Shown piece after piece: positions 8,054 to 42,198 of a DNA stretch of 45,217 nt. The stretch is from Opitutia bacterium UBA4654. Its GTDB lineage: Bacteria > Bacteroidota > Bacteroidia > Bacteroidales > Bacteroidaceae. Location of the stretch: positions 1 through 45,217 of the forward strand of contig CAVKOT010000001.1 in the NCBI GenBank assembly GCA_963658045.1. Reading direction: 5' to 3'. A program made the position numbers and the translations under genes. The notes beneath the pieces are model-generated. The model saw only the letters and a list, made by a program, of their open reading frames with translations, was not told the origin of the DNA and did no database searches. Within the stretch, counting starts at the first letter, position 1; each line of letters opens with the position of its first letter.

Positions 8054-10273
8054 ATGCCACTCCTAATGCCAGCATTCCCCTTCTGCCCACAGCATGACAG
8101 CATGCAGTGTGGGGCTGCCTGCCTGCAGATGCTGTGCCTGTACTATGGCAGGCGATATACGCTGGAGTACCTGAGTAACGCCTGCGCAGCAACCAGCGAG
8201 GGGGTCTCCCTCTATGGGTTGATGTCAGTGGCAGGACAGTTAGGCTTTGACACCCGGTGTGTGAAAGCGACGCTGGAAGAGGTGTCCCAGGCCACACTAC
8301 CCTGTATCCTGCACTGGAACCAAAATCACTTTGTGGTCCTGTACAGAATCAAGAAAGGCCACAAGTTCTACATCGCCGACCCTGGCAAGGGACTTATGAC
8401 CTACGACACCGAGGACTTTCTGAGCCATTGGGCCAGCATCCCGAACGTTGACAGACAGGAGTCCAGAGGCATCGCCATGCTGTTGCTACCCACCCGGGAT
8501 TTCTACAGCCAGGCAGAAGGACAAGGCAAGGCAGGGGGTGAGACACACTCCTTCCGCTTCCTGTTTGGATACATACACCGGTACAGAGGCTATTTCGGAC
8601 ATATTGCCCTGGGGCTGACCGTTGGCATAGGCATACAGTTGGCCTTGCCACTTCTCACCCAGTCCATTGTGGACGTGGGCATCAAGAACCAGGACATAGG
8701 TTTTGTCTGGCTAATCCTGCTGGGGCAGTTTGTACTCACCCTCAGTGGCACCATCTTCGACTTCATACGTCGCTGGCTCCTGCTGCACATCAGCCTGCGC
8801 ATCGACCTCTCGCTGGTGAGTGACTTCTTCATCAAGTTGCTCAGTCTGCCCATGCCTTTCTTCGACACCAAGCAGATGGGTGATCTGATACAGCGTATGG
8901 GTGACCATGACCGCGTGAATAACTTCCTCACCCAGCAAACCCTAAGCATCACCTTCTCAGCACTCACATTCTCGGTATTCTCGTCACTGCTGCTCTACTA
9001 TAGCGGCATGGTGTTCCTCATATTCCTGCTGGGCAGCATCCTCTATGCCTGCTGGATGACCCTCTTCATGCACCGGCGCAAAGTGCTGGACTATGAGTTT
9101 TTTGAGAAGCAGGCCGTATGCAGCAACAAGACCTATGAACTCATCACCTCCATGCAGGAGATAAAGCTCCAGGGCGGAGAAAACCAGCATCGCTGGGACT
9201 GGGAAGACACCCGGGTCGAACTCTCGACAGTGCAGACCAAGTCGCTGAAACTGCAACAGACACAGGAGGCGGGCAACGTCTTCATCAATGAGGTGAAGAA
9301 CATGCTACTCACAGTGGTGGCCGCCACAGCGGTAATCAACGGCCACATGACCCTGGGCATGATGCTGGCAGTGCAATATATCATAGGACAACTGAATGCT
9401 CCCGTGGAACAACTGATGTCCTTCCTGTATTCTGTCCAGGATGTCAGCATCAGCCTGGAACGCATCAACGAGATTCACCGCATGGACGGCGAGGACAGTG
9501 AACAGGGGTTGCAAACGTCTGTGGCCGACGAAAGCCAGGGCATCACGCTGCAAAATGTGTCATTCAGGTATGACAAGTTTGCACAGCACGACATCATTGA
9601 CCAGGTGAGCATCCACATCCCCAAAGGCAAGGTGACTGCCATTGTGGGGGCGTCGGGAAGCGGGAAAAGCACGCTGGTAAAGCTCATGCTGGGCTACTAC
9701 CCCACCAGGGAGGGCACGATAAGCATAGGCGGAACAGACATCAGACAGCTCAACAAGGAGTGGTGGCGGCACCAGTGCGGGGTAGTCATGCAGGATGGTG
9801 CCATCTTCTCTGACACCATAGCCAGGAATATTGCCGTGGGAGAGGGAGAGATTGACAGGCAGCGACTGATGGAGGTCACCGAGATGGCCTGCATCAAAGA
9901 GCATATTGTGTCACTGCCACTGAAGTTTGGCACAAAGATAGGGCGTGACGGAATGGGGCTCAGCCAGGGACAGCGGCAGCGCATTCTCATCGCCCGCGCT
10001 GCCTATCATAACCCCCAATACATCTTCCTTGACGAGGCCACTAACTCGCTCGATGCCAACAACGAGCGCAGGATAGTAGAGAACCTGGACACCTTCTATA
10101 AGGGGAAGACGGTGGTCATCGTGGCTCACCGCCTAAGCACCGTAAGGAACGCCGACCAAATAATCGTGCTTGAGCAAGGCAGAGTGGCCGAGGCCGGCAC
10201 GCACAAGGAGCTCACCCAAAAGCGTGGAGCATACTATCAACTGGTAAAGAACCAACTGGAACTGGGCAACTGA
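8054..10273 (+). CDS. Peptidase C39 domain-containing ABC transporter (double-glycine leader peptide processing/export)
   Basis: 739 aa. The N-terminus FPFCPQHDSMQCGAACLQMLCLYYGRRYTLEYL carries the C39 catalytic Cys context. Six TM segments follow. Walker A is GASGSGKST, the ABC signature is LSQGQRQR and Walker B is IFLDEATN. Confidence 0.92.
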   Translation: MPLLMPAFPFCPQHDSMQCGAACLQMLCLYYGRRYTLEYLSNACAATSEGVSLYGLMSVAGQLGFDTRCVKATLEEVSQATLPCILHWNQNHFVVLYRIKKGHKFYIADPGKGLMTYDTEDFLSHWASIPNVDRQESRGIAMLLLPTRDFYSQAEGQGKAGGETHSFRFLFGYIHRYRGYFGHIALGLTVGIGIQLALPLLTQSIVDVGIKNQDIGFVWLILLGQFVLTLSGTIFDFIRRWLLLHISLRIDLSLVSDFFIKLLSLPMPFFDTKQMGDLIQRMGDHDRVNNFLTQQTLSITFSALTFSVFSSLLLYYSGMVFLIFLLGSILYACWMTLFMHRRKVLDYEFFEKQAVCSNKTYELITSMQEIKLQGGENQHRWDWEDTRVELSTVQTKSLKLQQTQEAGNVFINEVKNMLLTVVAATAVINGHMTLGMMLAVQYIIGQLNAPVEQLMSFLYSVQDVSISLERINEIHRMDGEDSEQGLQTSVADESQGITLQNVSFRYDKFAQHDIIDQVSIHIPKGKVTAIVGASGSGKSTLVKLMLGYYPTREGTISIGGTDIRQLNKEWWRHQCGVVMQDGAIFSDTIARNIAVGEGEIDRQRLMEVTEMACIKEHIVSLPLKFGTKIGRDGMGLSQGQRQRILIARAAYHNPQYIFLDEATNSLDANNERRIVENLDTFYKGKTVVIVAHRLSTVRNADQIIVLEQGRVAEAGTHKELTQKRGAYYQLVKNQLELGN

Positions 10274-10274
10274 C

Positions 10275-10451
10275 ATGAACAGAGAAACACATCCAAGAGA
10301 GGGGCAGGATAACCTGGACTTGCGCAGCGAGAAGGCCCGCCGCTTTATCAGACAGAAGCCCTCCCGCCTGGTGCTCATGGGCACCTGGGCCATGACATTG
10401 GTCATCCTGGCACTGTCGCTGGCCTTCTATGCCATGCGCTTCAGGCTGTGA
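10275..10451 (+). pseudogene. 58-codon ORF resembling only the N-terminal TM anchor of a HlyD-family periplasmic adaptor (probable truncated remnant)
   Basis: The ATG is 1 nt after the ABC stop. The translation is MNRETHPREGQDNLDLRSEKARRFIRQKPSRLVLMGTWAMTLVILALSLAFYAMRFRL. The motif L-x-LRSE...P...G followed by a single TM helix matches the start of Bacteroidota HlyD adaptors as I recall them. The ORF then stops, 42 nt before the convergent xth gene. Confidence 0.45.
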
Positions 10452-10493
10452 GCCAGGAGGAAAGCATGCCTGCCCGATTGAACTGGCATCCCC

Positions 10494-11246
10494 TTACTCC
10501 AGCACCAGCTCCACAGGGCAGTGGTCGCTGCCCATGACATCCGTCAGGATGTTGGCCTCACGCACCCGGGGAAGCATGCGCTGCGAGACGAGGAAGTAGT
10601 CGATGCGCCAGCCAGTGTTCTTCTCGCGGGCATGGAAGCGGTAGCTCCACCAGGAGTAGATGCCCTCCTGGGTGGGATGCAGGTGACGGAAGGTGTCGGC
10701 GAAGCCCGCCTCCAGCAGCGTGGTCATCTTGGCACGCTCCTCGTCGGTGAAGCCTGCGTTCTGGCGGTTGGTCTTGGGATTCTTGAGGTCAATCTCCTCA
10801 TGTGCCACATTCATGTCACCACACACCACCACGGGCTTTTTCCTGTCCAGGGCCATGAGGTAGGCCCGGAAGTCATCCTCCCAGCGCATGCGGTAGTCCA
10901 GCCGGCGCAGTCCGTCCTGGCTGTTGGGGGTATAGACACACACGAGGTGGAAGTCCTCCATCTCCAGCGTGATGACCCTGCCCTCATGGTCATGCTCGTC
11001 GATGCCCATGCCATAGGTGACAGCGATGGGCTCAAGGCGGCTGTAGATGGCCGTCCCGCTGTAGCCCTTCCGGTCGGCATAGTTCCACCAGGAGTGGTAG
11101 CCAGGGAACTCCAGGTCAAGTTGCCCCGCCTGCATCTTGGTCTCCTGCAGGCAGAAGAAGTCAGCGTCAAGCGACTGGAAGACTTCACGGAAGTTCTTCC
11201 CCACCACGGCCCGCAGGCCATTCACATTCCAACTTATCAGTTTCAT
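10494..11246 (-). CDS. xth: Exodeoxyribonuclease III
   Basis: 250 aa. [33 protein letters not shown] and SDHCPV are hallmarks of the EEP-family Xth/APE1 nucleases. Confidence 0.95.
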
Positions 11247-11252
11247 GTTTCC

Positions 11253-11404
11253 TTGAGGTTTTGAGGTTATAAGGTTTTGAGGTTATAAGGTTGTATGCTT
11301 CCTGGTCTTCGGACTTTCGCCCATACAGCTGTACGAGTCACAGCCATAGGGCTCCTTTCCCCAAAAGACCTAAAAACCTCACAACCCTAAAACCTCATAA
11401 CCTT
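11253..11404 (-). repeat. Leader cassette of xth: (AGGTTnnn)x4 - 80-nt spacer - (AACCTnnn)x5 - ATG (read on the minus strand)
   Basis: On the plus strand there are 8-bp-period units TTGAGGTT TTGAGGTT ATAAGGTT TTGAGGTT ATAAGGTT (11253-11292) and AAAACCTC ACAACCCT AAAACCTC ATAACCTT (11373-11404). On the minus strand the AACCT array ends 6 nt before the xth ATG. Confidence 0.7.
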
Positions 11405-11408
11405 AGTA

Positions 11409-11416
11409 CAAAGATA
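11409..11416 (-). promoter_or_regulatory. Bacteroidota -7 promoter box (TATCTTTG on the minus strand) for xth
   Basis: The plus strand reads CAAAGATA. It sits immediately upstream of the repeat cassette, so the whole cassette would be 5' UTR. Confidence 0.45.
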
Positions 11417-11555
11417 GCCATTCCTGCCGACCTGGCAAAGTTCTGGGCCCGGCACAATGACTTTTCGGTGCAATCACTTTGCCAGGAGCACAAGTTTTCC
11501 TACCTTCGCACAGATTTGCGGTGCTGTCACCCTTGGACAGGTGAGGGCACGCTGA

Positions 11556-12503
11556 ATGCCACTAAGACAAGGACTCATGAACATCATACTGAAACTGCTG
11601 CGCGCACTCGCCGACCTGCCATCGAGCATGAGGCGCACCCCACACCCACGCCTCATCATGACCCTGCTGGTGAAGAACGAGGCCGACGTGCTGGAGCAGA
11701 ACATCCTCTTCCACAAGGCCATGGGCGTGGACGGGTTCATCATCACCGACAATGCGTCCACCGACTCCACCCCCGCCATCATCGAGAAATATGTGCGGCG
11801 GGGATGGGTGCTGGAGAGCATCCACGAGCCTGCCAGCGGATATGAGCAGAAGAGGTGGGTGGACCGCATGGTGTGGATGGCCAAGACGCGCTACCGGGCC
11901 GACTGGGTCATCAATGCCGATGCCGATGAGTTCTGGTTCCCAGCCACTGGCAACCTGAAGTCAGAGCCCTCGGTGACGCATGCCAATGTGCTGGCCGCCG
12001 AGGTGCGGAACGTCTGTCCCGAGGAGGGGAAGCCCTACCAGGAATGGACATGCACCATACGCGAGGTGCCCGACCTGCAGGAATATGGCCTCTCACCCTA
12101 CAGTATCTTCTCACGGCATTACAAGAAGGTGATGCACCGCACGGATGGCTACCTGCAAATCTCCATGGGCAACCACAAGGTGACGATGCTGCCACACCGC
12201 GAGAGGCGCAGCGGGATTGTGGTCTATCACTACCCCATGCGTGGACGCGAGCACTTCATGCACAAGATGATAAACGGTGGAAAGCAACTGGAGACCCACC
12301 GGGGAAAGCATGGCGGGCGGCACTGGCGCTACTTCTATGCGCTCTACCAGGAGGGCAGGCTCAGCGAGGAGTATGACCGGGTGGTGGGGCTGAACTGCCG
12401 CCAGCGTCTCCTGAGGGACGGCTACATTGTGAGGGACAATCGGCTGGGACGGCTCTTTGCCCCACAGACAGCCTCTGACATCCCAGGAGCAGACAGGCCG
12501 TAA
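11556..12503 (+). CDS. Glycosyltransferase family 2-like protein (alternative start at 11577)
   Basis: 315 aa. LIMTLLVKNEADVLEQNILFHKAMGVDGFIITDNASTDSTPAIIEKY followed by ADADEFW is a GT-A/GT2-like (Glyco_tranf_2_4-type) signature. Confidence 0.7.
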   Translation: MPLRQGLMNIILKLLRALADLPSSMRRTPHPRLIMTLLVKNEADVLEQNILFHKAMGVDGFIITDNASTDSTPAIIEKYVRRGWVLESIHEPASGYEQKRWVDRMVWMAKTRYRADWVINADADEFWFPATGNLKSEPSVTHANVLAAEVRNVCPEEGKPYQEWTCTIREVPDLQEYGLSPYSIFSRHYKKVMHRTDGYLQISMGNHKVTMLPHRERRSGIVVYHYPMRGREHFMHKMINGGKQLETHRGKHGGRHWRYFYALYQEGRLSEEYDRVVGLNCRQRLLRDGYIVRDNRLGRLFAPQTASDIPGADRP

Positions 12504-12918
12504 CGACACGCCCACTCCTTTCGACATTGAGCGGCATTTCCCCATAGCATTTCTATATGTGGCATCAAGGCCAGGAAGGACTGAGTTGGAAGGAATAGTT
12601 GGGAGCGACAAGCGGATGGGATAAGACAGCCCAGCGAGCACGAGGAAGAGTTTTTGCCGAAGGCAGGTTTTTGTTCTGCTGGCTCCTGGCACGAAGCGTC
12701 AGGGGGATGGACGGGAGGGACTTCAGAGCCAGCCAAGGTGTTTTCCCTGTTTTGGTCAAGGAGCCCCGGAAAAAAGGCAGTAATACTGCGATGGCCAAGC
12801 AAGCGCCTTGCGAGACCCAAGTAAGTACTACTGCGACGGCAAAGTAAGCACCTTGCGTTTGATTTCCTAAAAGATTTCAATTTCCAGCACTTGCCTTTGC
12901 CATATCGGGGGAAACATG

Positions 12919-12926
12919 TAACTTTG
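12919..12926 (+). promoter_or_regulatory. Bacteroidota -7 promoter box (TAACTTTG) for the etfBA-acd operon
   Basis: TAnnTTTG match 56 nt upstream of the etfB ATG. Confidence 0.5.
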
Positions 12927-12981
12927 CACGGTTTTACCATAAATGTGCAATTCATTACATACATCATATAATATATAAAGT

Positions 12982-13869
12982 ATGAGCTTAAAGATTGTAG
13001 TACTTGCCAAGCAAGTGCCCGACACGCGCAACGTGGGTCCCGATGCCATGACTCCTGAAGGCACCGTGAACCGCAGCGCACTGCCTGCCATCTTCAATCC
13101 CGAGGATTTGAACGCGCTGGAGCAGGCCCTCAGACTGAAAGACCAGAACCCCGGAACCACAGTGACTGTCATCACCATGGGCCCCGGACGCGCAGCAGAA
13201 GTCATCCGCGAGGCCATGTACCGTGGTGCCGACGATGGCTACCTGCTTACTGACCGTGCCTTTGCCGGTGCCGACACGCTGGCCACCAGTTATGCCCTGG
13301 CCACTGCCATCAAGCATGTGCAGCCCGATGTGGACCTCATCATCGGCGGCCGACAGGCCATCGACGGCGACACAGCACAGGTGGGCCCCCAGGTGGCAGA
13401 GAAGCTGGGACTGAACCAGATTACCTACACCGAGGAGATTCTCGCCTGTGAGAACGGGACCATACGCGTGAAGCGTCACATCGATGGTGGCGTGGAGACG
13501 GTGGAGAGTGCCCTCCCCTGCGTGCTCACGGTGAACGGGAGCGCGGCTCCCTGTCGCCCACGCAACGTGAAGCGGGTGATGAAGTACAAGCGTGCCAAGG
13601 CTCCCATGGAACTGCCACAGGGCACCACATGGGCCGACCAGCCCTATGCAGCACAGTATGACCAGAAGCCCTACCTGAAACTGGGGCAACTCAACTGTGC
13701 CGACGTGAATGCCGACCTGCAGCAGTGCGGACTGGCAGGATCGCCCACCAAGGTGAAGAACGTGGAGAACATCGTGTTCAAGGCCAAGGAGAGCAAGGTG
13801 CTCACTGGCAGCGACGAGGACATTAACGCACTGGTACAGGAACTCCTGGCCAACCACACTATCGGATAA
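12982..13869 (+). CDS. etfB: Electron transfer flavoprotein subunit beta
   Basis: 295 aa. The N-terminus MSLKIVVLAKQVPDT is the classical EtfB start. It is followed by etfA. Confidence 0.93.
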   Translation: MSLKIVVLAKQVPDTRNVGPDAMTPEGTVNRSALPAIFNPEDLNALEQALRLKDQNPGTTVTVITMGPGRAAEVIREAMYRGADDGYLLTDRAFAGADTLATSYALATAIKHVQPDVDLIIGGRQAIDGDTAQVGPQVAEKLGLNQITYTEEILACENGTIRVKRHIDGGVETVESALPCVLTVNGSAAPCRPRNVKRVMKYKRAKAPMELPQGTTWADQPYAAQYDQKPYLKLGQLNCADVNADLQQCGLAGSPTKVKNVENIVFKAKESKVLTGSDEDINALVQELLANHTIG

Positions 13870-13887
13870 AGAGGAGGAAAGGACACT

Positions 13888-14910
13888 ATGAACAACGTAT
13901 TCGTATATTGCGAGATAGAGGGCACCAAGGTGGCCGAGGTGAGCCAGGAACTGCTCACCAAGGGGCGCAAACTGGCCGACACACTGGGCGTGCAACTGGA
14001 GGCCATAGCCGCAGGAAGCGGTATCACAGGAGAGGTAGAGAAGCAAATCCTGCCCTATGGGGTGGACCGCCTGCACATCTTCGATGCTCCCGGACTGGCT
14101 CCCTACACCTCAAAGCCCCACACGGCTGTGCTGGTGAACCTGTTCAGGCAGGAGCAGCCACAGATATGCCTGATGGGTGCCGATGTGGTGGGACGTGACC
14201 TGGGCCCGCGCGTGAGCTCGGCCCTGCACAGCGGACTGACTGCCGACTGCACAGCCCTGGAGATTGGCCCCCATGATGACAAGAAACTGGGCAAGCACTA
14301 TGACAACCTGCTCTACCAGATTCGTCCTGCCTTTGGCGGCAACATCGTGGCCACCATCGTCAACCCCGAGAACCGCCCCCAGATGGCCACTGTGCGCAGT
14401 GGCGTGATGAAGGCCGAGGTGCTGGACGACAACTACCAGGGCGAGGTCATCATCGAGGATGTGGCCAAGTATGTGCCCGAGGCTGAGTATGTGACCCACG
14501 TGCTGGACCGCCATGTGGAGGCCGCAAAGAACAACCTGAAGGGTGCTCCCATCATCGTGGCCGGCGGCTATGGCGTGGGCTCACGCGAGGGATTTGGCCT
14601 GCTCTACGAACTGGCTCATGTCCTGCATGCCGAGGTGGGCGCAAGCCGTGCGGCTGTGGATGCGGGCTTCTGTGACCATGACCTGCAGATCGGGCAGACG
14701 GGAGTGACCGTGCGCCCCAAGGTATATATCGCCTGTGGCATCAGTGGAGCCATCCAGCATGTGGCCGGCATGAAGGAGAGCGGCATCATCATCAGCATCA
14801 ACAATGACGAGAACGCGCCCATCAACCAGATAGCCGACTATGTCATCAATGGCACGGTGGAGGAAGTGTTGCCCAAACTGATTAAGTATTACAAACAGAA
14901 TAGCAAGTAA
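13888..14910 (+). CDS. etfA: Electron transfer flavoprotein subunit alpha
   Basis: 340 aa. The C-terminal FAD-binding region (IVAGGYGVGS..., QIGQTGVTVRPKVYIACGISGAIQHVAGM) is typical of EtfA. Confidence 0.93.
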   Translation: MNNVFVYCEIEGTKVAEVSQELLTKGRKLADTLGVQLEAIAAGSGITGEVEKQILPYGVDRLHIFDAPGLAPYTSKPHTAVLVNLFRQEQPQICLMGADVVGRDLGPRVSSALHSGLTADCTALEIGPHDDKKLGKHYDNLLYQIRPAFGGNIVATIVNPENRPQMATVRSGVMKAEVLDDNYQGEVIIEDVAKYVPEAEYVTHVLDRHVEAAKNNLKGAPIIVAGGYGVGSREGFGLLYELAHVLHAEVGASRAAVDAGFCDHDLQIGQTGVTVRPKVYIACGISGAIQHVAGMKESGIIISINNDENAPINQIADYVINGTVEEVLPKLIKYYKQNSK

Positions 14911-15015
14911 GGTTTAATACAGGTTATAAGGTTTTTAGGTTATTAGGCCGTGAGGTTTCGCAGGAGACACACGTCCAGAACCTTAAAACCTTAAAACCTC
15001 AGAACCTCAAAACCT
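14910..15015 (+). repeat. Intercistronic cassette (AGGTTnnn)x6 - 21-nt spacer - (AACCTnnn)x5 - ATG upstream of the acyl-CoA dehydrogenase gene
   Basis: AGGTT (one AGGCC variant) occurs at 14910, 14921, 14929, 14937, 14945 and 14953. AACCT occurs at 14979, 14987, 14995, 15003 and 15011, an exact 8-bp period. The array ends 7 nt (15016-15022) before the ATG at 15023. The last two units (AACCTCAAAACCTCAA) are identical to those upstream of xth. Confidence 0.7.
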
Positions 15016-15022
15016 CAAAGAA

Positions 15023-16738
15023 ATGGCAAACTACTATAGCGACAGGAAAGAGATAAAGTTTGAGCTGGAGAACAGTCCGCTCATGGAGCGCATCGTGGAA
15101 CTCAAGGAGCGCGCCTACGAGGACAAGGACCAGTATGACGAGGCACCGCAGGACTATGCGGATGCCATGGACAATTATGACCGCGTGCTGGATGTGGTGG
15201 GCGACATCACAGCCAACGTGATAGCGCCCAACGCCGAGGATGTGGATGCCGAGGGGCCTCACTGCGAGAACGGACGTGTGCGCTACGCCAGCAAGACCTA
15301 CGAGAACCTGGGCACCATGGTCCAGGCCGGCATGAACGGAATGACCATGCCACGCCGCTACGGCGGGCTTAACCTGCCCGTGACTGTATATACAGCCGCC
15401 AATGAGATTGTGTCTGCCGGTGATGCAGGCTTCCAGAACATCTGGTCGCTGCAGGACTGCATCGAGACGCTCTTCTGCTTCGGCAGCGAGGAGCAGCGCA
15501 AGAAGTATATCCCCCGCGTGTGTGCCGGGGAGACCATGTCAATGGACCTCACCGAGCCCGACGCTGGCTCGGACCTGCAGAGTGTGATGCTCAAGGCCAC
15601 CTATGACGAGGAGAACCAGTGCTGGAGGCTGAATGGCTCGAAGCGTTTCATCACCAATGGTGACTCTGACATCCACCTGGTGCTGGCGCGCTCGGAGGCT
15701 GGCACACGCGACGGACGCGGCCTGAGCATGTTCATCTATGACAAGCGTGACGGCGGAGTGGATGTGCGCCGCATCGAGAACAAGTTGGGCATCCATGGCT
15801 CACCAACGTGTGAGTTGGTGTATAAGAACGCCAAGTGCGAGATTTGCGGTGACCGCAAACTGGGCCTCATCAAGTATGTGATGTCACTGATGAACGGCGC
15901 ACGACTGGGCATAGCAGCCCAGAGTGTGGGCCTGTCACAGGCAGCCTATGACGAGGCTGTGGCCTATGCACGCGACCGCAAGCAGTTTGGGCGCGCCATT
16001 ATCGAGTTCCCCGCTGTGGCCGAGATGATAAGCAACATCAAGGCCAAGCTGGACGCTGGACGTGCCCTGCTCTACCAGACAGCACGCTATGTGGATATCT
16101 ACAAGGCACTGGAGGACATCGCACGTGACCGCAAGCTCACGCCCGAGGAGCGTGCCGAGATGAAGAAGTACAGCAAGCTGGCCGATGCCTTCACTCCCCT
16201 GGCCAAGGGCATGAACAGCGAGTATGCCAACCAGAACGGCTATGACTGCATCCAGGTGCACGGCGGCAGCGGCTTCATGCTGGAGTATGCCTGCCAGCGC
16301 ATCTACCGCGACGCACGCATCACCAGCATCTATGAGGGCACGACCCAGCTGCAGACGGTGGCTGCCATCCGCTATGTGACCAATGGATTCTACTCCTCAG
16401 TCATCGAGGACTACGCCCAGATGCCCGTGGCTCCCGAACTGGAGGATGTCAAGGCACGCGTGGCAGAGATGGCCGGGAAGTTCAACGCCAGCGTGGCCCT
16501 GGTCAAGGAGGCCGAGAGCCAGGAGGTGCATGACCTGTGCGCACGCCACCTCTATGAGATGGCTGCCGACGTGATCATGTGCCAACTGCTCATGCAGAAC
16601 GCCACCAAGGCACCCGAGCTCTTCGCCCGCTCACTGCAAGTGTTTGCCAACCATGCCGAGGCAGAGGTGGCCAGGCACTCGACACTGGTGGAGCGCATGG
16701 GCAGCACAAGCCAGGTCGAGAACTACCGCCAGGCCTGA
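15023..16738 (+). CDS. Acyl-CoA dehydrogenase family protein (long form with C-terminal extension)
   Basis: 571 aa. The acyl-CoA dehydrogenase middle and C-terminal signatures are present (LTEPDAGSDL, RFITNG, QVHGGSGF, IYEGT). It is adjacent to etfBA. Confidence 0.92.
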   Translation: MANYYSDRKEIKFELENSPLMERIVELKERAYEDKDQYDEAPQDYADAMDNYDRVLDVVGDITANVIAPNAEDVDAEGPHCENGRVRYASKTYENLGTMVQAGMNGMTMPRRYGGLNLPVTVYTAANEIVSAGDAGFQNIWSLQDCIETLFCFGSEEQRKKYIPRVCAGETMSMDLTEPDAGSDLQSVMLKATYDEENQCWRLNGSKRFITNGDSDIHLVLARSEAGTRDGRGLSMFIYDKRDGGVDVRRIENKLGIHGSPTCELVYKNAKCEICGDRKLGLIKYVMSLMNGARLGIAAQSVGLSQAAYDEAVAYARDRKQFGRAIIEFPAVAEMISNIKAKLDAGRALLYQTARYVDIYKALEDIARDRKLTPEERAEMKKYSKLADAFTPLAKGMNSEYANQNGYDCIQVHGGSGFMLEYACQRIYRDARITSIYEGTTQLQTVAAIRYVTNGFYSSVIEDYAQMPVAPELEDVKARVAEMAGKFNASVALVKEAESQEVHDLCARHLYEMAADVIMCQLLMQNATKAPELFARSLQVFANHAEAEVARHSTLVERMGSTSQVENYRQA

Positions 16739-20002: not shown

Positions 20003-20015
20003 GCACCAAGCCATG

Positions 20016-20101
20016 CATGCCCCTGCGATGCTACGCGCATGCCCCTGCGATGGCACATGCATGCCCCTGCGACGAACAACGCAGGGGCATGCATTTTTTG
20101 T
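20016..20101 (+). terminator. Composite terminator: 3 direct GCATGCCCCTGCG arms at a 22-bp period plus an inverted arm plus a T-run
   Basis: The direct arms start at 20016, 20038 and 20060. The inverted arm CGCAGGGGCATGC is at 20081-20093, followed by ATTTTTTG. Arm 3 and the inverted arm form a 13-bp stem with an 8-nt loop. Confidence 0.75.
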
Positions 20102-30017: not shown

Positions 30018-30038
30018 GGGCAAGGTGTGCCCGAAAAC

Positions 30039-30124
30039 GCATGCCCCTGCATAGGGCTGCACATGCCCCTGCAAAGACAAACGCATGCCCCTGCATTGAT
30101 GAATGCAGGGGCATGCGTTTTTTC
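30039..30124 (+). terminator. Composite terminator: 3 direct (G/A)CATGCCCCTGCA arms at a 22-bp period plus an inverted arm plus a T-run
   Basis: The arms start at 30039, 30061 and 30083. The inverted arm TGCAGGGGCATGCG is at 30104-30117, followed by TTTTTTC. Confidence 0.75.
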
Positions 30125-40499: not shown

Positions 40500-41665
40500 G
40501 ATACTATCTGATAGCAGGCGAGGCCAGTGGCGACCTGCACGCGAGCCACCTGATGGCCGAGCTCAGGGCACAGGACCCCCAGGCCGAGTTCCGTGGCATA
40601 GGGGGAGACCTGATGCAGGACGAGGGTGCCACACTGGTGCGCCACTACCGCGACCTGGCCTACATGGGCATCCTGCCGGTGCTCATGCACCTGGGCACCA
40701 TACTGGGGGGCATGAGGGAGTGCCGTGCCGACATCCTGCAATGGCATCCCGATGCGGTCATCCTGGTCGATTACCCAGGCTTCAACCTGCGCATGGCGAA
40801 ATTCGTCCATACACACACGCGCATACCTGTCATCTATTACATCTCGCCCAAGATATGGGCGTGGAAGGAGCACCGCATACATGACATACGCCGCTATGTG
40901 GATATGATGCTGAGCATCCTGCCCTTCGAGGTGGATTTCTATGAGCGCAGGCACCACTACCCCATCCACTATGTGGGCAATCCCACGGTGGACGAGGTGG
41001 ATGCCTACCTGCACGAGCACCCCGCTGACGAGGCCGCCTTCCGCCAGGACAACGGACTGGACGGCCGCCCCGTGATAGCCCTGCTGGCAGGCAGCCGCAG
41101 GCAGGAGATCAGCGGCAACCTGCCGCGCATGGTGAGTGCGGCACTGGGCATGGGCACGGACTACCAGATGGCCGTGGCTGCCGCGCCAGGCATCCCCGAT
41201 GACTTCTACCATGAGGTGCTGGCCAGCCAGTATCACCGACTGACCGCCGAGCGGAGGCTGACGGTGCTGCGTGACCAGACTTACCGACTGCTGCAGCACA
41301 GCACAGCGGCACTGGTGACCAGCGGGACGGCCACGCTGGAGACGGCCCTGCTGCGCGTGCCACAGGTGGTGTGCTACCACATGTGGGCGGGACGGCTGGC
41401 CTCGGTGGCCCGCAGGCTGGTGCTGAAGATTCCCTTCATCTCGCTGGTCAACCTGGTGGCGGGCGAGGAGGTGGTGCCCGAACTGGTGGCCGAACAGATG
41501 AACGTGCCCAACGTGGAGCGGCACCTGCGGGCCCTGCTGCCTGGCGGCCCCGCACGCGAGGCGCAGCTGGAGGGCTACCAGCGCATGGCGGAGAGGCTGG
41601 GCCAGCCCGGCGCACCCGCCCATGCCGCCGCGCTCATCATCCAGAGGCTGCGGGGAGAGGGATAA
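40496..41665 (+). CDS. lpxB: Lipid-A-disaccharide synthase
   Basis: The start is chosen at MRYYLIAGEASGDLHASHLM, with its ATG overlapping the surE stop (ATGA). It is 389 aa with a typical LpxB N-terminus and the SGTATLE motif. Confidence 0.93.
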   Translation: MRYYLIAGEASGDLHASHLMAELRAQDPQAEFRGIGGDLMQDEGATLVRHYRDLAYMGILPVLMHLGTILGGMRECRADILQWHPDAVILVDYPGFNLRMAKFVHTHTRIPVIYYISPKIWAWKEHRIHDIRRYVDMMLSILPFEVDFYERRHHYPIHYVGNPTVDEVDAYLHEHPADEAAFRQDNGLDGRPVIALLAGSRRQEISGNLPRMVSAALGMGTDYQMAVAAAPGIPDDFYHEVLASQYHRLTAERRLTVLRDQTYRLLQHSTAALVTSGTATLETALLRVPQVVCYHMWAGRLASVARRLVLKIPFISLVNLVAGEEVVPELVAEQMNVPNVERHLRALLPGGPAREAQLEGYQRMAERLGQPGAPAHAAALIIQRLRGEG

Positions 41666-42055
41666 TTTCGAATTAGGAATTTTGAATTAAGAATTGGCGA
41701 GCTGTCACTCTGGTGGCGGCTCGCTTTGTATGGGGGTGATGGGATGGAGGATAATTTTGAATTAAGAATTTTGAATTAAGAACTGGCGAGCTGTCACCAT
41801 GGTGGCGGCTCGCTTTGTATGGGGGTGATGGGATGGGGGATAATTTTGAATTAAGAATTTTGAATTAAGAACTGGCGAGCTGTCACTCTGGTGGCGGCTC
41901 GCTTTGTATGGGGGTGATGGGATGGAGGATAATTTTGAATTAAGAATTTTGAATTAAGAACTGGCGAGCTGTCACCATGGTGGCGGCTCGCTTTGTATGG
42001 GGGTGATGGGATGGGGGATAATTTTGAACCAGGAATTTTGAATTAAGAATTAACC
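41661..42055 (+). repeat. Tandem repeat, 89-bp unit x 4 plus a partial fifth (A-B-A-B variant order, i.e. a 178-bp higher-order unit)
   Basis: Units start at 41661, 41750, 41839, 41928 and 42017. Each contains GATAATTTTGAATTAAGAATTTTGAATTAAGAA, a 12-bp hairpin and TTTGTATGGGGGTGATGGGATGG. The first unit overlaps the lpxB stop codon. Confidence 0.9.
41697..41731 (+). terminator. Terminator-like hairpin within the 89-bp unit (repeated at 41786, 41875 and 41964)
   Basis: GCGAGCUGUCAC-[UCUG or CAUG]-GUGGCGGCUCGC is followed by UUUGUAU. The 12-bp stem has two G-U pairs that are valid only on the plus strand. The A/B variant differences fall in the loop. Confidence 0.6.
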
Positions 42056-42113
42056 CTCACAGACTTCTTACAACGGCTCTTGCCTCACAAGGAGGCAAGG
42101 CGCACTCACAAAC

Positions 42114-42198
42114 GCATGCCCCTGCATCGCCCTTTGCATGCCCCTGCGCAGACCATCGCATGCCGCTGCATGCGCCTATGCAGCGGCATGCGTTTTTT
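42114..42198 (+). terminator. Composite terminator: 3 direct GCATGCC(C/G)CTGC arms at a 22-bp period plus an inverted arm plus a T-run
   Basis: The arms start at 42114, 42136 and 42158. The inverted arm TGCAGCGGCATGCG is at 42179-42192, followed by TTTTTTC. Arm 3 (GCATGCCGCTGCA) and the inverted arm carry a compensatory C>G / G>C change relative to the other two loci. Confidence 0.75.

Follow-up and report, generated by a model that had tools for sequence, protein, structure and literature searches.

The cassette that precedes xth in the DNA analysed here (a stretch of 45,217 nt, hereafter the window, to whose positions all coordinates refer) is probably a gene-less copy of a hairpin-forming insertion element with arms made of tandem octamers, belonging to the same family as cassettes that carry a PF05635 gene; we put the probability of this reading at about 0.7. 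The element is repeated in the genome, it is inserted, its polarity is fixed and it lies directly against gene ends. Some 30 copies, all inserted recently, are present and a gene-specific switch is not needed to account for them, the element in front of xth being an ordinary member of an unusual and barely described family. Ever since the cyanobacterial STRR were described, arrays of 7-8-nt tandem units have been noted beside bacterial genes, and they are one puzzle; the PF05635 protein of rRNA intervening sequences is a second. The link between both puzzles is made concrete by one genome in which a single full cassette coexists with about 30 empty ones that have the same arms. In addition, filled and empty sites in sister species provide clean junctions at which insertion that spares the genes on both sides can be studied. 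The warning for annotation is that AGGTT/AACCT arrays are not to be read as gene-specific leaders.

Two octamer-armed copies in the window

Direct reading of the minus strand confirmed the order of parts that had been described for copy 1, from promoter box through AGGTT array, spacer and AACCT array to the ATG (Table 1). The 5′ arm is composed of three exact AGGTT units together with AGGGTT and AGGTC variants. The -7 box of the original prediction is credible: of the five congeners compared, four (genomes G002, G007, G011 and G016) have a conserved TAtcTTTG ahead of xth. Together with the TTTG further upstream, the box forms what we take to be the Bacteroides promoter consensus. The GGUC-UUCG-GACU mini-hairpin placed in the spacer turned out to be a reading of the plus strand, the minus strand having AGUC-CGAA-GACC, and in the predicted fold these letters belong to the extended main stem and do not form a separate hairpin.

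Table 1. Parts of the two copies and the xth gene, in window positions
Feature	Positions	Strand	Basis
TTTG of -33 type in the putative Bacteroidota promoter ahead of xth; 19 nt before the -7 box	11436..11439	-	Read directly
-7 box, TATCTTTG	11409..11416	-	Read directly; TAtcTTTG also upstream of xth in G002, G016, G011, G007
Copy 1, 5′ arm, AGGTT-type octamer array (AAGGTTAT, GAGGTTTT, AGGGTTGT, GAGGTTTT, TAGGTC)	11367..11404	-	Read directly, pattern scan
Copy 1, non-repeat centre, 74 nt, with its own inner stem	11293..11366	-	Predicted fold
Copy 1, 3′ arm, five exact AACCT octamers at 8-nt spacing	11256..11292	-	Read directly, pattern scan
Copy 1, A-rich tail CAAGGAAAC, nine bases between the last AACCT unit and the ATG	11247..11255	-	Read directly; predicted mostly unpaired
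xth, exodeoxyribonuclease III, 250-aa ORF, ATG at 11246	10494..11246	-	TIGR00633 E = 1.2e-99, PF03372
Copy 2, 5′ arm, AGGTT units starting on the last base of the etfA stop	14910..14960	+	Read directly, array scan
Copy 2, 3′ arm, five AACCT octamers (14979-15015) and tail CAAAGAA, up to the acd ATG	14979..15022	+	Read directly, array scan

A second cassette had been noted in front of an unrelated gene, and this observation stands. Copy 2 fills the gap between etfA and an acyl-CoA dehydrogenase gene (acd). It begins on the last A of the etfA stop (14908-14910), which is the first base of its first AGGTT, and extends up to the acd ATG at 15023. The last 16 nt of the AACCT arrays of the two copies are identical (AACCTCAAAACCTCAA). 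The window contains 9 matches to the three-unit pattern when one mismatch is allowed, as compared with 0.00 for 100 shuffled versions, and the predicted RNA folds of copies 1 and 2 beat those of shuffled sequences (z = -6.7 and z = -5.0, respectively). A search of positions 10000-16000 with the Rfam covariance models gave 0 matches at E ≤ 1.

Placement, polarity and insertion of the arrays

The assembly of the window's own genome (G000) amounts to 2.9 Mb at 57% GC and is 93.6% complete; gene ends were taken from a crude codon-usage gene caller written for this analysis. We found 39 AGGTT/AACCT arrays in 31 clusters (loci), none of the 39 lying inside a called gene, and the genes that neighbour the 31 loci are functionally unrelated. 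Thirty-one arrays are located ≤15 nt from a gene end, 21 as AGGTT after a stop and 10 as AACCT before a start, and the reversed arrangement is absent (0). Among the 37 arrays with two called neighbours, 30 are within 15 nt of the end of a coding sequence, against 7.9 expected when each array is placed at random inside its own intergenic region, and none of 100,000 simulations reached 30. Genome-wide, the motif is thus far from randomly placed with respect to start codons and strand, in keeping with the original prediction. Its interpretation as a start-codon leader is not supported, the arrays being as regular after stops as before starts.

The arrays show further regularities. AACCT arrays end 7-14 nt before start codons, and a TAA or TGA stop codon forms part of the first unit in several G000 cases. 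Arm length ranges from 3 to 17 units across copies, five units being the commonest; several arrays have no partner arm and many others form inverted pairs. A 24-nt companion module (AACCT-GAAAGCGAAGCG-ACCT), which keeps the 8-nt phase, is embedded in many arrays and has about 30 intergenic copies. In a 395-kb sample of genome G012, 38 of 39 arrays are non-coding, and those lying ≤30 nt from a gene end comprise 10 AGGTT-after-stop and 6 AACCT-before-start cases versus 2 and 0 in the reversed arrangement. G012 belongs to the same genus as G000, yet this sample has 49% GC as compared with 57%.

When the tandem arrays of G000 are sorted by period, those of period 7 (62/71) and period 8 (91/99) are mostly intergenic, and periods 6, 9 and 12 are mostly coding. 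The period-7/8 unit families in G000 are AACCT-N3, AACCG-N3, AATTATG, AAGAATT and AAATTGT. The AACCG-N3 octamers form a sister family about as abundant as that of AACCT (for example on contigs C2, 8623-8652, C12, 14868-14905, and C17, 15667-15718), and on contigs C4 and C24 AACCG-N3 arrays pair with AGGTT arms. On contig C152 (5521-6115), a composite unit of about 132 nt, which contains an AGGTT array, companion modules and AACCT units, is present as four tandem repeats between two genes.

The comparison of filled and empty sites provides evidence of insertion. All five G000 array sites tested are empty in G002, the nearest species found. At etfA-acd, the sequence is TAAagcaccATG in G002, the acyl-CoA dehydrogenase of which is 95% identical, and TAAtATG in G011; in at least nine congeners the distance from stop to start is 1-12 nt. 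The same junction holds a different AGGTT/AACCT element in G009, a hairpin of a different octamer in G045, and a small gene between other octamer arms in G001, G007 and G017. Altogether, the fillings in congeners (loci L081-L105) comprise at least four elements, namely AGGTT/AACCT, a hairpin of the ATGCATAA type, and PF05635 genes flanked by arms of either GTAGTTAA or GAAGTTAA. Since etfA-acd is empty in at least nine species and has at least four different fillings in others, it is a recurrent insertion spot.

In front of xth, the TAtcTTTG box is kept in G002, G007, G011 and G016 and no AACCT array is present (a single AACCT in G016); in G007 and G011 the box lies 24 nt before the xth ATG. 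As an element of about 160 nt is found between box and ATG in G000, it should form nearly the whole xth 5′ UTR. In G012, six AACCT units directly precede the xth ATG, with almost no 5′ arm, and 0 of 80 more distant xth loci have an AACCT array. The other sites compared are a 35-nt plain spacer (C269 site) and an 11-nt gap (C55 site) in G002, as well as the frdA-frdB junction, which reads TAAtcacATG in G002 and has 2-5 nt in G002, G016, G011 and G007. Three filled/empty site pairs showed neither a target-site duplication nor a conserved terminus. These comparisons do not support a switch dedicated to xth and acd: both copies are absent at the orthologous G002 sites and are part of a 31-locus family beside unrelated genes.

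The four-unit pattern is patchy within the genus, with 41 matches in G000, 429 in G012 and 30 in G014; the 21 other congeners have few matches or lack them altogether, and 16 genomes of other families of the order gave 0. On a shorter scale, faecal-metagenome contigs of relatives that are about 90-95% identical have one extra octamer (AACCTCAT) at 11390, and in contigs about 95% identical positions 14914-14978 of copy 2 are swapped for 67 other letters, the 3′ arm still aligning. In other, unrelated Bacteroidales, three xth loci (L004, L006 and L007) have 8-nt arrays (CTAAATCC, AATTCATA) just upstream of xth or beside its promoter.

Association with PF05635 gene cassettes

G000 has two PF05635 (23S-rRNA-IVS / Avd-like) genes, on contigs C246 and C133. 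The C246 gene (PF05635 E = 2e-38, with a TIGR02436 match) is flanked by four AGGTT and five AACCT units, and the cassette is inserted between frdA, encoding the flavoprotein of fumarate reductase, and frdB, encoding its iron-sulfur protein. The C133 gene has arms of ATTTACA and TTGTAAAT, a unit that is also found in gene-less arrays. In G000 and five congeners, 18 of 23 PF05635 genes have inverted 8-mers common to both 110-nt flanks; in one, the common 8-mers are mainly direct. The unit sequence tracks the relatedness of the proteins, even across loci. Indeed, the proteins of L110 and L115 are 73% identical and their units are GAAGTTAA and GGAGTTAA, and those of L107, L121 and L125, which are 56-65% identical, all have ATTTAC-type units.

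Five genomes from four other genera have homologues of the C246 protein that are 49-63% identical, each of them at the frdA-frdB junction (loci L182-L187, 6 of the 151 genomes of the family). The closest one (63% identity, in G191, which belongs to another genus) has AGGTT/AACCT arms, and the more distant ones have arms of AAGTTT, AAGTTC or TTGACRAG, in a stepwise shift from AAGGTT.

Neither window copy has a PF05635 gene between its arms, and C246, with the same unit sequence, has one. As both copies are gene-less and their centres are devoid of any PF05635 remnant, we filed them as the empty form of the cassette family. When the 23 PF05635 proteins served as tblastn queries on all gene-less elements, no match rose above chance level, and the centres of gene-less copies have no similarity to one another. 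In view of these spacers having no recognisable PF05635 remnant, descent of the gene-less copies from full cassettes by deletion lacks support. The distribution of arms and arrays is not fully concordant either: G012 has its 429 pattern matches, but AACCT arms are absent from all three PF05635 genes detected there; there are 23 matches in G191, with AGGTT arms, and 22 in G109, which has other arms at frdAB. Across these genomes, the association between arm type and dispersed arrays is thus only suggestive.

Among the papers searched, none ties octamer arrays to PF05635, and the only one to name this family deals with diversity-generating retroelements. A second kind of small gene, with like packaging, was observed on contig C28 (11981-12415), where a PF13366 (GxxExxY / PDDEXK_3) gene lies between inverted arms of ACACGGA-type units.

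From these data, the following course can be proposed. The element, whose inverted arms are tandem octamers (AGGTT-NNN in the 5′ arm, AACCT-NNN in the 3′ arm), would have inserted into a short non-coding gap at a gene end, from the -7 box to the ATG at xth and from the etfA stop to the next ATG for copy 2, and it ends the upstream reading frame. Full-size cassettes, such as that at frdA-frdB, have the gene for the PF05635 four-helix bundle in the loop between identical arms. The element would be transcribed as the xth 5′ UTR or, for copy 2, as intercistronic RNA, and a long imperfect double-stranded stem would form while the short A-rich initiation region stays free. The insertion may be tolerated because the stem folds on itself and leaves this region free. 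The stem is a plausible substrate for RNase III, as in rRNA intervening sequences, and the RNase III gene (rnc) is present in G000. The arrays presumably gain and lose 8-nt units.

More speculatively, the arrays may be RNA or single-stranded DNA sites for an oligomeric Avd-like PF05635 protein. Both together would then be a transposase-free mobile system that sets hairpins exactly at stop/start junctions, with the hairpin removed from the RNA or tolerated in it, and with gene-less copies, such as that at xth, mobilised in trans. We regard this extension as doubtful. If it applied, removal or tolerance of the hairpin would make the insertion silent, in effect an 'intervening sequence' of mRNAs. 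Avd is a pentamer, which can be set beside the five units of the commonest arm.

Predicted folds, alternatives and known systems

In the predicted folds of both copies the AGGTT and AACCT arrays pair, which supports the arm pairing put forward in the original prediction. The sequestration of the start site by the distal array, derived from this pairing, is predicted for positions -21 to about -60 but not for -20 to -1, which are predicted to be unpaired with a probability of about 0.65. For positions -40 to -21 the predicted unpaired probability is about 0.1 with the 5′ arm and about 0.7 without it; the accessibility of the start codon is predicted to be equal with and without this arm, and copy 2 behaves alike. 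A thermometer, for which a weak hairpin would have to mask the AUG or the ribosome-binding region and open at 37-42 °C, does not fit, as the stem, at about -70 kcal/mol, is far too stable, the region from -20 to -1 is predicted to be mostly open and predicted access to the AUG is arm-independent. Of 17 elements, 11 have a sense fold whose stability exceeds that of the antisense fold; the difference is not significant and thus gives no support for selection at the RNA level. Translational coupling by unwinding of the stem was considered and rejected, the initiation region being already open in the predicted folds.

A true cis-regulatory leader, in which the AACCU array would be a G-free landing zone or the site of an RNA-binding protein and translation would be tuned by AGGUU pairing or by its unwinding by a ribosome terminating upstream, is unlikely. 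It would agree with the strict polarity and the short distance from AACCT arrays to starts, with the pairing of the arrays and with the predicted opening of -40 to -21 upon removal of the 5′ arm; moreover, a post-transcriptional role has been proposed for TAACTGA heptamers just upstream of starts (PMC4679880). Nonetheless, the elements are missing at the orthologous sites of the nearest species, their neighbour genes are functionally unrelated, stop-abutting arrays are about twice as numerous as start-abutting ones and several have no partner arm. In addition, the region from -20 to -1 and the AUG are predicted to be equally accessible whether or not the arm is present, and physiological temperature would not suffice to melt so stable a stem.

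Movement of a classical MITE or REP-type element by a transposase or RAYT encoded elsewhere in the genome is a very improbable explanation, although the copies are dispersed, palindromic, intergenic, lineage-specific and insertion-polymorphic, and REPINs (PMC3116915) are a precedent for mobile hairpin doublets. No PF01797 (Y1 transposase / RAYT) match was found in the 93.6%-complete genome, on which ground RAYT-driven spread was rejected; no target-site duplication was seen at filled/empty site pairs, the arms, with their variable number of units (3-17), differ from fixed terminal inverted repeats, and the copies have unrelated centres. Retro-mobility was rejected as well, no PF00078 reverse transcriptase being found in G000. 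We give the least credit, next to none, to local microsatellites that replication slippage would have created separately at every junction, without any transfer from site to site. That unit number varies, with one 8-nt indel between strains, and that period-7 and -8 arrays are generally intergenic would be expected from slippage, but the same units occur at about 30 loci with the same 5′-to-3′ polarity, many arrays form inverted pairs and the companion module recurs in its intergenic copies.

An insertion element with octamer arms, the reading that we prefer, can be compared with several known systems. Intervening sequences (IVS) occur in the 23S rRNA of Leptospira as well as in that of Coxiella burnetii. 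In the latter, IVS are excised by RNase III and, as for the elements studied here, they are inserted hairpins whose loop holds a PF05635 (S23p) gene or is empty (PMC4990558). Each of the two has a patchy distribution among lineages and is considered selfish. They differ in location, as the 23S rRNA IVS sits in an rRNA helix and the window copies lie ahead of xth, in its 5′ UTR, and between etfA and acd, with arms that are octamer arrays. Correia elements (NEMIS) of Neisseria are also short hairpin-forming insertions, co-transcribed with their neighbours and with stems cut by RNase III; their terminal inverted repeats are fixed, a TA target is duplicated, and they possess neither tandem-unit arms nor a PF05635 gene.

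The heptamers of the cyanobacterial STRR are another kind of short-unit array. In Xanthomonas and Nostoc, according to Rehm et al. 2015 (PMC4692102), arrays of GGGAATC and GGGGAYT heptamers, respectively, are about 90% intergenic, and those of Xanthomonas often form convergent pairs that lie 28 nt on average from the neighbouring ORF. Like the arrays described here, they are made of short units and are tandem, intergenic, arranged in inverted pairs and close to ORFs; in contrast to our octamers, their units are G-rich heptamers that were studied as quadruplex formers. A text search of that paper gave no four-helix protein, and the passages covered here contain no comparison of filled versus empty sites. 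TAACTGA heptamers occur as direct repeats upstream of starts in Beggiatoaceae, Cyanobacteria and some Bacteroidetes (MacGregor 2015, PMC4679880). They share with the present arrays a position a few nucleotides from starts or overlapping upstream stops, stop codons in several frames, strain specificity and indels in one-unit steps, but they are mostly direct, have no inverted partner and were interpreted as regulator sites. REP, BIME and REPIN sequences (PMC3116915) resemble the present elements in being palindromic, intergenic and numerous and in spreading inside a genome; each REP is one short palindrome and is associated with a RAYT, while arrays are found here and no RAYT was detected.

Other tandem repeats were observed in the window. 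At 41660-42049, an 89-nt unit is repeated 4.4 times and each unit contains AATTTTG / AATTAAG heptamers; the heptamer families AAGAATT and AAAATTC, as found there, build about 20 other intergenic arrays in the genome. Finally, three arrays with a 22-nt period (20015-20072, 30035-30095 and 42113-42176) have the common core GCATGCCCCTGC.
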